Shown piece by piece: positions 33,868 through 39,245 of a DNA stretch of 44,996 nucleotides (within the stretch, counting starts at the first letter, position 1; each line of letters opens with the position of its first letter). The notes under the pieces were generated by a model. It searched no databases. It was not told the origin of the DNA and saw only the letters and a program-made list of their open reading frames with translations. The stretch lies in the UHGV virus genome UHGV-0278542; one strand, 5' to 3'. Origin of the DNA: a virus. Made by a program: the position numbers and the translations under genes.

Positions 33868-34146
33868 TCAGGCCTCGAAGAATTCGCCGTTCTTCGGGGC
33901 TTTTTCTTTTATCAGCATTCTGGCTACTTGCTTAGCCAGTTCCGCCAACTCCTCGTCTTCAACACCCCATTCAAGAACAGCCAGAAGCATGGCCATCTTT
34001 GGGATAAAGCTGTCTTTCCATCGCGAAATTTGCGATTCATTAATCCCTAACGCGTCGGCAACCTTTCGCTGACCACGTACAGCAATTCGATTCAGGATGT
34101 TGCTTGTAATTGCATTCGCTTTCTTGCGAGTACTTGTAAGTTGCAT
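33868..34146 (-). CDS. cII: Transcriptional activator CII-like
   Basis: ATG at 34146; ...GINESQISRWKDSFIPKMAMLLAVLEWGVEDEELAELAKQVA resembles lambda CII; located between nutR/cro and the replication genes. Confidence 0.65.
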   Translation of the reverse strand: MQLTSTRKKANAITSNILNRIAVRGQRKVADALGINESQISRWKDSFIPKMAMLLAVLEWGVEDEELAELAKQVARMLIKEKAPKNGEFFEA

Positions 34147-34225
34147 ATGTAAGTATTTCCTTAGATAACAATTGATTGAATGTATGCAAATAAATGCATA
34201 CACCATAGGTGTGGTTTAATTTGAT

Positions 34226-34257
34226 GCCCTTTTTCAGGGCTGGAATGTGTAAGAGCG
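34226..34257 (-). promoter_or_regulatory. nutR (boxA CGCTCTTACACATTCCA, boxB GCCCTGAAAAAGGGC)
   Basis: Reverse-strand sequence matches lambda nutR boxA/boxB, directly downstream of cro. Confidence 0.85.
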
Positions 34258-34264
34258 TGGTTAT

Positions 34265-34474
<210 letters not shown>

Positions 34475-34491
34475 TTAGTACATGCAACCAT

Positions 34492-34555
34492 TATCACCGC
34501 CAGAGGTAAAATAGTCAACACGCACGGTGTTAGATATTTATCCCTTGCGGTGATA
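34492..34555. promoter_or_regulatory. Right operator OR1-OR2-OR3 with divergent PR (to cro) and PRM (to cI)
   Basis: 17-bp sites at 34492-34508 (OR1, tatcaccgccagaggta), 34516-34532 (OR2) and 34539-34555 (OR3) match lambda operators. Confidence 0.9.
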
Positions 34556-34562
34556 GATTTAA

Positions 34563-35279
<717 letters not shown>

Positions 35280-35429
35280 TGGGCAAGGTGTTCTGGTCGG
35301 CGCATAGCTGGTGAAAAAATTATTTAATGCGGTGTATTGGCTGATTGTAACCCCATGTAACATCTTGCCGTCACCATTTCGGTGGTTAGATTTTTAATAA
35401 AAAAAAACAAATGTATAGCAAGGTTTTTT

Positions 35430-35909
35430 ATGGATAAAATTAATTACCCACCCCTGTTTGAGCCAGGGTTCCATGACATGGATGAAGCTGGATTAAAATC
35501 GTATTGTGTCGATTGCTTTCCTTCATCATCCAGGCGAGGCATGCTATACTGTAATTTTATACAGCTACTCGAATCTATTCGAGAATTATCTGCTCAATAT
35601 GGCTGTTTTACAGAAATATGGGTTGATGGTTCATACACCACGTCTAAACCAGAGCCTGATGATATTGATATTTTGTTGGTATGTGACTATAGCAATATAA
35701 ACTCAATACCTGTCATGCTTCGGGGCCGCGTCGATAATTTGCTTGACCGAAACTACATCAAACAAAACTACAAAATTGATGTCCTACTACTCATGAAGAA
35801 TTTAGATGACCCTAACTATGATTATGAGTACTGGCGTAGTTACTGGCGCGGTTGGTTTGGTTTTGATCGCAGTGAAAACCCGAAAGGGTTAGTGAGGATT
35901 TTTTTATGA
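35430..35909 (+). CDS. Hypothetical protein with a minimal nucleotidyltransferase-like motif, first gene of a two-gene operon in the rexA position
   Basis: ATG at 35430 with AAGG RBS (track ORF starts at 35382); motif EIWVDGSYTTSKPEPDDIDILLV fits hG[GS]-x9-DxD; AT-rich; co-oriented with and downstream of cI. Confidence 0.55.
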   Translation: MDKINYPPLFEPGFHDMDEAGLKSYCVDCFPSSSRRGMLYCNFIQLLESIRELSAQYGCFTEIWVDGSYTTSKPEPDDIDILLVCDYSNINSIPVMLRGRVDNLLDRNYIKQNYKIDVLLLMKNLDDPNYDYEYWRSYWRGWFGFDRSENPKGLVRIFL

Positions 35910-36838
35910 ATGATAAATCAATGTTTAAAAATTGCGATAAACGCATTGATTTCATTCAAAAAGAAGTCGATGCAATGAAGCAAAACAAAACCAGGTCCTT
36001 TGCTGACATGCTTCTTTATCGCTCCATGGATTCTCATCTGAGCGATTTGAAGGCCGAAAAATTAAAGCAAGATAGTCGGCACCCACTTATCGATTTTTTT
36101 GAGCTGCGGCTGAAAGGCTCTGAGGTTGACTTTGGCTCTATTCCTTTAGAGCTGCTTGGGGCTATTTCAACAAATCTTGCAGCGCTAATACAAAGAGCAA
36201 CACACAAAATTGCCTCAGGCAAGGACTCAAAAAAAGTTCCCTACGACGTGAAAAGCTCCTTAAACCTCAGGCTGGCTGATTTATCCCCTGGGTCTACAAA
36301 ATTGGGCGTCACCTTCTCTACAGGAATAGCAGAATTAGTAGAAACAGTACCCAGCAAGGCTGTAAAAGGCATATTCGATTTGTTGTTAAGCGATGACGAC
36401 AACAACTTCATGAATCACGTCGCTGAAATTGGATACAATTCCACTGTAAGCCTTAAGAGAATCGTAGAGGAATGCGATAAACACAACTTAACATTTGATG
36501 CAAGTTGGACCGGTCCATTTAGTAATGGCACCAAGGTGGCAACTATTGACTCCAATAAAATTAAGTACTTGGTGAGTAGACTTACATCAACCATTTCATC
36601 CCCTCCCATTACTGAAACGGTTACAGGCGAACTGGTCGTTCTATCCAAATATGGGAAGCTGGAGCTTGATGTTGGTGGTGAACATTTAAAGGCTTCCTAT
36701 CCGATTGAAATGCTAGATTTAATACAAAAAAAACACAAGGTCGGACAGATTGTTTCTCTTTTAGTGGAGACTACTGAGATTCACAATGATCGCATAGGTC
36801 TGTACCGTAAAAACCATCTTGTTAAATCGGTTCTTTAA
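35906..36838 (+). CDS. Hypothetical protein (310 aa), second gene of the operon in the rexB position
   Basis: ATG at 35906 overlaps the upstream stop (ATGA), GTGAGGA RBS; no recognisable motif beyond a single Rx4H (YRSMDSH). Confidence 0.55.
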   Translation: MNDKSMFKNCDKRIDFIQKEVDAMKQNKTRSFADMLLYRSMDSHLSDLKAEKLKQDSRHPLIDFFELRLKGSEVDFGSIPLELLGAISTNLAALIQRATHKIASGKDSKKVPYDVKSSLNLRLADLSPGSTKLGVTFSTGIAELVETVPSKAVKGIFDLLLSDDDNNFMNHVAEIGYNSTVSLKRIVEECDKHNLTFDASWTGPFSNGTKVATIDSNKIKYLVSRLTSTISSPPITETVTGELVVLSKYGKLELDVGGEHLKASYPIEMLDLIQKKHKVGQIVSLLVETTEIHNDRIGLYRKNHLVKSVL

Positions 36839-36845
36839 TATCTCA

Positions 36846-36872
36846 CCCGGCCACCGCGCCGGGTTTTCTTTG
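36846..36872 (+). terminator. Intrinsic terminator ending the cI operon (timm-like)
   Basis: cccggc-caccgc-gccggg hairpin followed by TTTTCTTT, 8 nt after the stop of the 310-aa gene. Confidence 0.65.
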
Positions 36873-37022
36873 CCTCACGATCTCCCCACCTAAAAAAACA
36901 TAACTCATTGTATTTATTGAAAAATAAATAGATACAACTCACTAAACATAGCAATTCAGATCTCTCACCTACCAAACAATGCCCCCCTGCAAAAAATAAA
37001 TTCATATAAAAAACATACAGAT

Positions 37023-37085
37023 AACCATCTGCGGTGATAAATTATCTCTGGCGGTGTTGACATAAATACCACTGGCGGTGATACT
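37023..37085 (+). promoter_or_regulatory. Left operator OL3-OL2-OL1 and promoter PL (-35 TTGACA 37057-37062, -10 GATACT 37080-37085)
   Basis: Operator half-sites and ttgacataaataccactggcggtgatact match lambda OL/PL. Confidence 0.9.
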
Positions 37086-37124
37086 GAGCACATCAGCAGG
37101 ACGCACTGACCACCATGAAGGTGA

Positions 37125-37155
37125 CGCTCTTAAAAATTAAGCCCTGAAGAAGGGC
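37125..37155 (+). promoter_or_regulatory. nutL (boxA CGCTCTTAAAAATTAA, boxB GCCCTGAAGAAGGGC)
   Basis: Matches lambda nutL, located between PL and N. Confidence 0.85.
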
Positions 37156-37327
37156 AGCATTCAAAGCAGAAGGCTTTGGGGTGTGGTGAAGGGTTCATGG
37201 ATGGGAATATGTCGCACGTAAAGCGGCGAGGCCTGCGGAACTATTGCCGAATTGAAGTCGGCCGAAGCAGGTCGAAATGGGTCTCCCACCTACCACACCA
37301 CCAAAGCTAACTGACAGGAGAATCAAG

Positions 37328-37654
37328 ATGGATGCACAAACACGCCGCCGCGAACGTCGCGCAGAGAAACAGGCTCAATGGAAAGCAGCAAATCCCCTGT
37401 TGGTTGGGGTAAGCGCAAAACCAGTTAACCGCCCTATTCTCTCGCTGAATCGCAAACCGAAATCACGAGTAGAAAGCGCACTGAATCCGATAGACCTTAC
37501 GGTGCTGGCTGAATACCACGAACAGATTGAAAGCAACCTGCAACGTATTGAGCGCAAGAATCAGCGCACATGGTACAGCAAGCCACGCAGTGAAATGGGT
37601 GTGACTTGTGTTGGTCGCCAGAAAATGAAATTAGGCAGCAAACCACTTATTTGA
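37328..37654 (+). CDS. N: Antitermination protein N (lambda)
   Basis: MDAQTRRRERRAEKQAQWKAANPLLVGVSAKPVNRPILSLNRKPKSRVESALNPIDLTVLAEYHEQIESNLQRIERKNQRTWYSKPRSEMGVTCVGRQKMKLGSKPLI matches lambda N; AGGAG RBS. Confidence 0.92.
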   Translation: MDAQTRRRERRAEKQAQWKAANPLLVGVSAKPVNRPILSLNRKPKSRVESALNPIDLTVLAEYHEQIESNLQRIERKNQRTWYSKPRSEMGVTCVGRQKMKLGSKPLI

Positions 37655-37662
37655 GGTGAGAT

Positions 37663-38133
37663 ATGACAAAATCATGGAGTGTACCTTTTCCTGAATCAGA
37701 AACTGAACATGATGGAATGCCTGTTTTCTGGAGATTCCAGGCGACAGTTGAAGAAGATGGAATCAAAATATTCGCACTTCAATATATAGCTTTTCATCAG
37801 ACAGAGCATTATGCATGGTTGGTTCCTGCGCATTGGATTGTTAATTTTAAACCAGCACCAAATCAGTGGTTACAGGAATGGAAACAAAAGAGAAATAGAT
37901 ATGCAATTAAGAAAGTAGCAAAAAATGCAGAAAGATCTTTTGCATTCCCAACGAAGAAACTTGCCATTGAAAGTTTATTGCGCCGGAAGAAATACCATTT
38001 AATGAGAATCAAACAAGATTTGGCTGTTGCATCAACTCTTGTTGATGGGATGAAGAATATTGATACATCAACACCAGATATTGAATATAACTTTGGACAC
38101 AACCAAGAAACAGAAAATTGGGTATTTTATTAG
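37663..38133 (+). CDS. Hypothetical protein (156 aa) immediately downstream of N (lambda ral/sieB position)
   Basis: ATG at 37663 with GAGGTGAG RBS, 8 nt after the N stop; AT-rich; no match to lambda genes that I recognise. Confidence 0.5.
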   Translation: MTKSWSVPFPESETEHDGMPVFWRFQATVEEDGIKIFALQYIAFHQTEHYAWLVPAHWIVNFKPAPNQWLQEWKQKRNRYAIKKVAKNAERSFAFPTKKLAIESLLRRKKYHLMRIKQDLAVASTLVDGMKNIDTSTPDIEYNFGHNQETENWVFY

Positions 38134-38276
38134 TACAAATAAGCACTGTGTATTCATTCCAACGAGTGAATACACGGAGCAATGTCGCTCGTAACTAAAC
38201 AGGAGCCGACTTGTTCTGATTATTGGAAATCTTCTTTGCCCTCCAGTGTGAGGGCAATTTTTTTAACGGGGGAAAT

Positions 38277-39245
38277 ATGAGTGAAGTAACAGATTTAGTT
38301 GTTATTGAAAAAGCAAATGCAATGACTGTATTTCAGTCTGCCGATCAGATTGAAGAAATCCTTCAAAAGGTTGAACGTGAAGTTATGTCCTTTGTGCCTG
38401 ATATCACAACGGCAAAGGGAAGAAAGGAGATCGCTTCTCTGGCGTATAAAGTTGCGCAGACGAAAACATATCTCGATGGTCTTGGCAAAGACCTTGTTGC
38501 TGAACTGAAGGAAATTCCAAAGCTAATTGATGCTAACCGCAAGACAGTGCGTGATCGCCTTGATGAGCTGAAAGCCAAGGCACGCCAGCCTCTTACTGAT
38601 TATGAGGAAGAACAGGCGCGGATTAAAGCCGAAGAAGAAGCTAAGGCAGCAGCTGAAGCTCTCGCAAAGCAAATTGAGTCTGACCATGAAATAGCGATTT
38701 TGATGGATCGCGAATTTGACCGCCAAAGAGAAGAGGCAAGACTCAAAGCGGAGCAGGAAAAGCGAGAGCATGAAGAACGCTTAAAAAGAGAAGCTGAAGA
38801 GAAAGCCAGAGCTGAAGCCGAAGCAAAGGCAAAAGCCGAAATTGAAGCAGCAGCAAGGCGAGAAGCAGAAGCTAAGGCCGCAGCGGAACGTGCAGAGCGT
38901 GAACGCATTGAAGCCGAGCAACGAGCACAGCGCGAAGCAAAAGAGGCAGCAGAACGAGCTGAAAGAGAAAAGCAGGCAGCAATTGAAGCAGAACGCCGAA
39001 AAGCACAGGAGGAGGCAGAACGAATCCGGCGCGAGGCTGAAGCAAAAGAGCAAGCCAGAATAGCAGAAGAAAAAAGAATCAAGGACGAAGAAGAGCGTAG
39101 AGCAAAGGATAAAGCTCACCGGAGAGAAGTAAATAACAAAATACTTGCTGACCTTATCAAGGTTGGCGCATCAGAAGATGTTGCTAAAAATATCATAATA
39201 GCCATCGCAAAAGGCGAAGTATTCGCAACAAAAATAACCTACTAA
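38277..39245 (+). CDS. Charged coiled-coil protein with a long Glu/Ala/Lys/Arg-rich low-complexity core
   Basis: ATG at 38277 with GGGGAAAT upstream (track ORF from 38223); EAKAKAE-type repeats over about 150 residues. Confidence 0.5.
   Translation: MSEVTDLVVIEKANAMTVFQSADQIEEILQKVEREVMSFVPDITTAKGRKEIASLAYKVAQTKTYLDGLGKDLVAELKEIPKLIDANRKTVRDRLDELKAKARQPLTDYEEEQARIKAEEEAKAAAEALAKQIESDHEIAILMDREFDRQREEARLKAEQEKREHEERLKREAEEKARAEAEAKAKAEIEAAARREAEAKAAAERAERERIEAEQRAQREAKEAAERAEREKQAAIEAERRKAQEEAERIRREAEAKEQARIAEEKRIKDEEERRAKDKAHRREVNNKILADLIKVGASEDVAKNIIIAIAKGEVFATKITY

Follow-up and report, generated by a model that had tools for sequence, protein, structure and literature searches.

The slot between the repressor gene cI and the antiterminator gene N is a recognised hotspot for cargo genes, which are transcribed together with the repressor, and both rexAB and bstA are held there (PMC8585504). 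In prophage BTP1 and its relatives, for example, the position of the defence gene bstA immediately after the repressor gene is conserved, and bstA is presumably expressed from the repressor promoter (PMC8585504). Other described defence systems are regulated by a small nucleotidyltransferase (NTase). MntA restrains its partner HepT by oligoAMPylation (PMC13000451), while in Hailong (the NTase HalB and the membrane ion channel HalA) a nucleotide or oligo-DNA made constitutively holds the effector off (PMC13276650) and in Clover (the NTase CloB and the dGTPase CloA) a constitutive inhibitory ligand does the same (PMC12265719), the ligands being oligo-dA or p3diT (PMC13276650, PMC12265719). Finally, the PADLOC defence candidates (PDCs) are genes embedded in BREX, DISARM or type I restriction-modification (RM) systems, and 145 of them were listed in a study in which none was assayed (Payne et al. 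2024, bioRxiv 10.1101/2024.01.29.577857). One of them, PDC-M63 (cassette CAS_00189; Payne et al. 2024, bioRxiv 10.1101/2024.01.29.577857), is as catalogued a computational candidate derived from such embedding and carries no mechanism. Deletion of a prophage-borne PDC-M63AB from E. coli NILS69 led to no detectable change with 10 virulent dsDNA phages (PMC12409345, Phil Trans R Soc B 2025); the location given for that copy is within a prophage, with nothing further on its placement (PMC12409345).

We have analysed a stretch of 44,996 nucleotides of the virus genome UHGV-0278542 (the window, to which all coordinates refer; Table 1). A BLAST comparison of the window with lambda gave two homologous blocks flanking the cI-to-PL slot. 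The left one, 34144-35310 (cII'-cro-OR-cI), is 99.0% identical to lambda 38362-37196 and stops 31 bp beyond the cI stop codon, and the right one, 36845-37629, is 88% identical to lambda 35825-35062 and restarts exactly at the rexB stop/t_imm hairpin. No lambda homology was found by BLAST between them, where a cassette of two genes (A and B) takes the place of lambda 35826-37195 (1370 bp, rexB-rexA). The description of cI, OR, OL, PL and N as lambda-type in the earlier note is borne out by these flanks and by the Pfam assignment of N, and the two co-oriented reading frames that it placed after cI, with their ATGA overlap, were confirmed.

Both boundaries of the cassette were drawn from three-way alignments of the window, lambda and phage mEpX1. 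At the left boundary, the linker that follows the repressor gene has two substitutions among the three up to GCGCATAGCTG; beyond GCGCATAGCTG lambda diverges, and the same linker is carried upstream of the identical cassette behind other repressors. At the right boundary the t_imm hairpin (ACCCGGCC-N6-GGCCGGGT, stem at 36845-36864, then a T-run) is kept in all three, with a folding energy of -13.7 kcal/mol (z = -3.0). The hairpin and T-run previously read as the end of the two-gene operon are real and constitute lambda's own t_imm. On the alignments, rexA-rexB has been exchanged exactly for the cassette, from linker to t_imm, in a prophage of lambda immunity. The AT-richness reported before holds insofar as the GC content of the cassette lies below that of cI (45.2%) and of the whole window (45.9%), but the shift is modest and the lambda rexAB genes are similar (40.9%).

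Table 1. Coordinates of the features in and around the cassette that occupies the rexA-rexB slot
Feature	Position	Strand	Basis or detail
PR promoter	34518-34490	minus	promoter scan
cI repressor, lambda type, 237 aa	34566-35279	+	ORF and 99.0% lambda block
Conserved post-repressor linker, left recombination boundary of the cassette	35280-35310	+	three-way alignment
PDC-M63 cassette replacing rexA-rexB	35311-36844	+	1534 bp, 39.5% GC
Weak hairpin, then T/A-rich run, cI-A spacer	35362-35391	+	consensus scan flag at 35367-35386
Shine-Dalgarno of gene A, AAGG	35420-35423	+	sequence; 6 nt before ATG
Gene A, DUF6932 minimal nucleotidyltransferase, 159 aa	35430-35909	+	ATG start, homologue starts
Shine-Dalgarno of gene B, GAGGA	35894-35898	+	sequence
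Gene B, 310 aa	35906-36838	+	overlaps gene A by ATGA (4 nt)
t_imm intrinsic terminator, right cassette boundary	36845-36874	+	hairpin scan, lambda homology
PL promoter, TTGACA-17-GATACT, in lambda-type OL region	37057-37085	+	scan, lambda homology
N antiterminator, lambda-like, far side of the slot	37328-37654	+	Pfam N36, 1.5e-26

The pair shares with lambda RexA and RexB the slot from cI to t_imm, the orientation, the two-gene operon layout and a similar AT-richness, and PRM presumably drives both pairs in the lysogen. Such likeness could be expected of highly diverged versions of RexA and RexB, but at the sequence level this descent is refuted and we consider it extremely improbable. The lowest E-value of a two-sequence BLASTP search was 0.42, profile bit scores were negative, the sizes are reversed (159/310 aa against 279/144 aa) and neither A nor B has a membrane segment (19-residue Kyte-Doolittle maxima 1.25 and 1.38), unlike the membrane protein RexB (2.39). 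The lack of resemblance to the Rex proteins extends to the fold.

Both proteins have relatives among the PADLOC candidates. Scanned with PADLOC-DB v2, A matched PDC-M63A (PDLC04744, E 1.8e-41, residues 1-158) and B matched PDC-M63B (PDLC04749, E 7.5e-45, together with five more M63B models), as did all 92 divergent homologues of B. By these profile matches the pair is a member of PDC-M63, in the same A-then-B order, and the cassette appears to be a mobile two-gene unit of this candidate family. The other PADLOC matches were weak, namely a PDC-M32A domain (B residues 62-146) and a sub-threshold DrmC (E 0.004), and no similarity to BstA emerged from the scan for A or B; BstA is moreover a single protein with a DNA self-immunity element (aba), unlike the two proteins encoded here. 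A few B homologues weakly match PDC-M02B. Phage mEpX1, whose genome is sequenced, carries the cassette at 99.6% identity (99.3% over the spanning block 35253-36882) between a cI and an N/Nun region that both differ from those of the window; the two genes have the annotation 'hypothetical' there. Of 5426 complete E. coli genomes, 18 contain the cassette, and Erwinia phage vB_EhrS_59 and Escherichia phage PhiR30_1 have a divergent version of it. Our literature search found PDC-M63 named solely in the NILS69 study and no paper naming DUF6932, the Pfam family of protein A, and, going by titles and abstracts, none of the mEpX1 literature is apparently about these two genes. The earlier note had put the pair forward as a possible new defence system. 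The novelty must be given up, since the pair is already known as an uncharacterised candidate and is not a new discovery; the defence role is plausible, given the PADLOC listing, the type I RM, toxin-antitoxin and helicase genes beside which distant homologues lie, and the standing of the slot between cI and N as a hotspot for such cargo.

Protein A could be assigned with some precision. A longer reading frame that starts from GTG 35382 was rejected because the homologues begin at the methionine of the ATG listed in Table 1. The protein matches Pfam DUF6932 (PF22014, 1.7e-24) and, weakly and below threshold, the Pol-beta palm, with no match in NCBIfam. It contains a glycine-serine pair (G67-S68) followed after nine residues by D78-I-D80, and G67, S68, D78 and D80 are invariant among 45 homologues down to 35% identity; D117 is near-invariant (90% or more of the 45 sequences). 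Minimal NTases are recognised by the motif hG[GS]-x9-13-Dh[DE]h and a third carboxylate, and A has both. The AlphaFold model (pLDDT 96) displays the alpha/beta fold of NTases, and its nearest folds include MNT antitoxins, with modest Z values and only ~90 core residues covered. The NTase signature proposed for the first protein has thus held, both in the alignment of homologues and in the model. A is a minimal NTase of the Pol-beta superfamily with a complete GS/DxD/D site, and it forms a subfamily of its own with additional N- and C-terminal elements. The latter include R136-S-Y-W-R-G-W-F-G-F145 (RSYWRGWFGF), which is almost invariant among the 45 homologues.

Protein B resisted assignment, and searches of Pfam, NCBIfam and PDB sequences with B, its 92 homologues and its middle domain returned nothing. 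Its model (pLDDT 83) begins with two long helices in a coiled-coil (residues ~10-56), continues with an alpha/beta domain (~60-230) and ends in an OB fold (~235-309), a barrel of five strands in which a helix connects strand 3 to strand 4. The OB fold best matches SSB, RPA, PriB and RuvA, and a Foldseek search of the PDB gave no significant match outside it. Class III adenylyl cyclases and the palm domains of Cas10 came up repeatedly as weak matches of B (E 0.01-0.4, probability 0.1-0.6); the likeness fits the modelled beta-alpha-beta-beta-alpha-beta topology of residues 62-202 and is a hint only. An exhaustive profile search yielded 270 representative clusters of B relatives at E-value <=0.001, mostly of 300-330 aa among the matches listed, and a search for fused architectures with the middle domain returned fragments alone, so the B family appears to be a stand-alone one of fixed architecture. 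The idea that A and B are duplicated relatives was discarded (hhalign probability 0.7%).

Conservation within B was counted over 92 members, the most distant of them at about 20% identity. The sole invariant residue is Ser130 (92/92), exposed in a loop of the model and contained in the best-conserved block (121-150, the hairpin LRLADLSPGSTKLGVTF). Trp201 follows (91/92), and then come acidic residues at 63 (90/92) and 66 (71/92), Arg/Lys at 68 (84/92) and 122 (79/92) and Thr/Ser at 131 (81/92). No conserved catalytic set was found across the 92 members, and the surface of the OB fold is poorly conserved.

The order of the genes, with that of a minimal NTase just upstream of and coupled to that of its partner, is also found in HepT/MntA, and a string in B (YRSMDSH, R39...H44) had been singled out as an Rx4H; HEPN partners carry a conserved Rx4-6H motif. 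A canonical type VII (HEPN-MNT) pair is nevertheless effectively refuted. The partner in HepT/MntA is a HEPN RNase, but no HEPN fold appeared among the structural matches listed for B, and the string is not conserved (R39 in 12/92, H44 in 59/92) and sits in the coiled-coil, leaving little doubt that it is a chance occurrence. A itself differs from MntA by its extra N- and C-terminal elements and its DUF6932 assignment. Hailong and Clover resemble the pair in being two-gene systems of a Pol-beta-type NTase and an effector, and the OB fold of B would suit a ligand of the kind made there. However, HalA is a membrane channel and B has no membrane segment, and CloA is an HD-domain dNTPase whereas no HD domain or dNTPase was found in B or its 92 homologues (Pfam, 25 families listed). 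No match named HalB was among the listed sequence and fold matches of A. The pair does not present the CD-NTase of about 300 aa or more and the signal-activated effector by which CBASS is recognised.

A way to appreciate how A and B are used by phages is to examine where else they occur. An IMG/VR scan gave 55 viral loci (B at 46-100% identity), in all of which A is directly upstream of B with a 4-nt overlap. In 52 of the 55 the pair is preceded, at a distance of 56-409 bp, by a repressor-like gene of the same orientation, and the arrangement first noticed here extends to other prophages; of the other three, two are truncated and one (L032) has a DinI-like gene in the place of the repressor. 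Clustering at 70% identity sorts the upstream repressor-like genes into about 21 clusters, and most of the genes encode S24 (GxSM) repressors. In ~10 loci (three clusters) the upstream proteins are short (113-131 aa) and lack the S24 GxSM motif, and those inspected have a helix-turn-helix and a cro-like gene facing them. Cassettes with 99-100% identical B stand behind at least 8 different repressors, always joined by the same linker. We found no systematic placement of PDC-M63 in repressor operons of lambdoid prophages in the literature on the family, so that its recurrence behind about 21 repressor types, as displayed by these loci, is what is new here.

All other contexts that we examined, at identities down to about 35%, likewise have A directly before B, the junctions being a 4- or 14-nt overlap or a 10-nt gap. 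One copy is in an E. coli prophage that has a lambda-type integrase and early genes of the YdaS/YdaT type and that adjoins an isocitrate-dehydrogenase (Iso_dh) gene, and a P22-like prophage of Salmonella carries the pair as well. Distant homologues from metagenomes (35-45% identity) retain the pairing and adjoin type I RM, YoeB/Phd and DUF4011 helicase genes; one such pair shares a mobile element with genes for Lar, RadC and a methyltransferase, another is again behind an S24 repressor and a third, chromosomal, adjoins imuB-dnaE2. Adjacency in all loci together with such varied settings indicates that the two genes travel as an obligate unit, apparently cargo of defence islands and, in enterobacteria, standard cargo of repressor operons.

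The imuB-dnaE2 neighbourhood, the resemblance of the OB fold to SSB, RPA, PriB and RuvA and the weak Pol-beta palm similarity of A would suit an accessory of phage DNA metabolism, in which an NTase and an ssDNA-binding OB protein serve repair, replication or SOS. This is quite improbable in our opinion, given that the pair is co-oriented with the repressor and not part of the early lytic operons, that A has neither the thumb nor the fingers of a polymerase and that the neighbourhoods are mostly defence or mobile elements. We also give a low probability to the pair having no anti-phage role and acting as an addiction or stability module, or in some other function of lysogen fitness or lysogeny control within the repressor operon. 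The negative defence test in the native host (NILS69) and the toxin-antitoxin-like architecture are compatible with it, and the link to many repressor types would fit prophage maintenance equally well. However, the distant homologues are found outside prophages, beside or inside RM and other defence loci, and the same slot carries proven exclusion systems.

For expression, no convincing promoter was found by scanning between cI and gene A, nor any -35/-10 conserved upstream of gene A across cassette variants; in the divergent variants, inspected by eye, the AAGG Shine-Dalgarno is the sole common element upstream of A. The only promoter-like site within the cassette falls inside gene A and is within chance expectation. 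The hairpin in the cI-A spacer (-7.2 kcal/mol, z = -1.5) is no better than in shuffled sequence and is probably not a functional terminator. Since there is neither a convincing promoter nor a significant hairpin in the spacer, the simplest reading of the layout is that A and B are co-transcribed with cI, presumed to be the first gene of the PRM operon, from PRM/PRE, in parallel with rexAB and bstA, and would hence be made in the lysogen. Against this part of our interpretation, certain variants bear terminator-like hairpins between the repressor gene and A.

Taking all this together, the explanation that we prefer, and to which we give an even chance, is that lysogens express the PDC-M63 cassette in the rexAB slot and that A controls B in it, the pair acting in exclusion or in the manner of a toxin-antitoxin module. 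An anti-phage function of the pair, by itself, we consider slightly more probable than its absence. Both proteins would be made in the lysogen from the cI transcript and, because their genes are translationally coupled, may form a complex in which the NTase holds B in check. Infection would break this control, and B, once free, would attach to nucleic acid and arrest the infected cell. The restraint of B by A, which is drawn by analogy, falls a little short of even odds in our judgement. It could operate by nucleotidylylation of B, as MntA does with HepT, the invariant and exposed Ser130 being a candidate site, or by constant synthesis of a nucleotide or oligonucleotide ligand bound by the OB fold, comparable to HalB and CloB; each of these chemistries, taken singly, is unlikely. 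Both predict that B alone, or B with a catalytically dead A, would be toxic.

This explanation agrees with the makeup of B (an OB fold and neither a membrane segment nor a conserved catalytic set), with the linkage of A and B in 55/55 viral loci and in all further contexts, with the co-oriented repressor-like genes of about 21 clusters in 52/55, with distant homologues near type I RM, YoeB/Phd and DUF4011 helicase genes, with the original recognition of the family as embedded in RM, BREX or DISARM and with the precedents of HepT/MntA, Hailong and Clover for an NTase that restrains its partner. On the other side, deletion of PDC-M63AB in NILS69 was neutral to 10 virulent phages (a narrow panel), PDC status rests solely on guilt by embedding, neither A nor B has a recognisable toxic or effector domain, and OB folds bind proteins too, the OB surface of B being poorly conserved.

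The main rival explanation, although unlikely, reverses the polarity. A would be a toxin that modifies tRNA or another nucleic acid (compare MenT and AbiEii), and B an antitoxin or sensor whose OB fold sequesters either A or the substrate of A. The complete and strictly conserved active site of A, its Arg/Trp/Tyr-rich C-terminal motif, suited to nucleic-acid binding, the lack of a conserved catalytic set in B and the tight coupling of the two, which resembles a toxin-antitoxin pair, would all be accommodated. However, AbiE/MenAT systems combine an NTase of DUF1814 (the Pfam family of AbiEii and MenT) with an AbiEi-type partner, and Pfam gave A only DUF6932 and the weak Pol-beta palm, while B had no significant Pfam match and PADLOC gave nothing beyond PDC-M63, PDC-M32 and the weak DrmC. 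With its 159 aa, A also lacks the second lobe of the AbiEii/MenT toxins. Furthermore, in toxin-antitoxin operons the antitoxin is usually the first-encoded and smaller protein, and this is the place that A occupies.

A more far-reaching version of the preferred explanation, in which A controls B, would make PDC-M63 a mechanistically new immune module, where a DUF6932 NTase guards an OB-fold effector of an unseen type, whether by nucleotidylylating a serine or through an oligonucleotide ligand of its own making. The module would spread as interchangeable repressor-operon cargo among enterobacterial prophages of 20 or more immunity types, as the functional successor of RexAB; we regard this version as rather doubtful. 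The slot between cI and PL is the site where phage exclusion (by RexAB) was first studied, and it is known for defence cargo expressed in the lysogen. The presence there of PDC-M63 with clean boundaries, its association with about 21 repressor types and the inseparability of the pair provide independent contextual support for a role in conflict. The lambda-immunity background makes PDC-M63 accessible to lambda genetics, and a convenient test bed would be a lambda that carries the cassette instead of rexAB, or else phage mEpX1 grown on E. coli K-12. If inactive, the pair would advise caution about predictions made by guilt by embedding; if active, it would add a new class of partner to the defence systems regulated by small NTases, such as HepT/MntA, Hailong and Clover.

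The lambda-like part of the immunity region, as delimited by homology, comprises only cro-OR-cI and t_imm-OL-PL-N, with non-lambda modules on its flanks, because similarity to lambda stops at the start of cII (window 34144) and the cII allele differs from that of lambda. Directly past cII in the rightward operon, the gene for the T5orf172/MUG113-domain protein is a possible second conflict gene near the immunity region: it matched PDC-S57, a single-gene candidate of PADLOC, at 4.5e-29, and the PD-Lambda-1 T5orf172 domain at 4e-12. Past N, where lambda carries ral and sieB, the window instead has two ORFs, neither of which had a match in Pfam or PADLOC.

Features of the immunity region, its flanks and gene B
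Feature	Window position	Strand	Assignment
T5orf172/MUG113-domain protein, 214 aa	33189-33833	-	T5orf172/MUG113
cII	33868-34149		Pfam Phage_CII, 5e-41
Segment of gene B middle domain, residues 62-146	about 36089-36343		shared with PDC-M32A N-terminus
156-aa ORF	37663-38133	+	phrog_1636, function unknown
ORF of about 323-340 aa, very Glu/Lys/Ala-rich	38223-39245	+	phrog_1376, function unknown

Variants of the cassette formed by gene A (the minimal nucleotidyltransferase) and its partner gene B were found in IMG/VR. In four of these loci (L044-L046 and L060), the spacer that separates the repressor gene from gene A holds a good intrinsic-terminator-like hairpin followed by a T-run; one example is GTGCCTAACAAGTAAGGCAC-TTTTT. 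Such a hairpin may either weaken read-through or point to a separate promoter. Another locus, L064, is a decaying copy, with B shortened to 221 aa, A intact and the upstream repressor broken into two ORFs. A distant A-B pair lies, in two metagenome contigs (L070 and L071), directly downstream of an imuB-dnaE2-type mutagenesis cassette (IMS and a DnaE2-like polymerase), and no prophage or defence island was recognisable around it in these contigs.

Within the PDC-M63 cassette, to which the A-B pair corresponds, the first-listed family is FAM_00167. This family is also paired with FAM_01519 in a second cassette (CAS_00073, FAM_00167>>FAM_01519), more abundant than that of PDC-M63 and turned down as a candidate (Payne et al., 2024, supplementary file 8). 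The related nucleotidyltransferase family may therefore have partners other than the family of B. Along the B protein, a segment of the middle domain (residues 62-146) is also present at the N-terminus of PADLOC PDC-M32A, with matches of up to 7e-8 among B homologues, a few of which also gave weak matches to PDC-M02B. From these profile matches, an unnamed domain in the middle of B appears to recur across several candidate defence systems.
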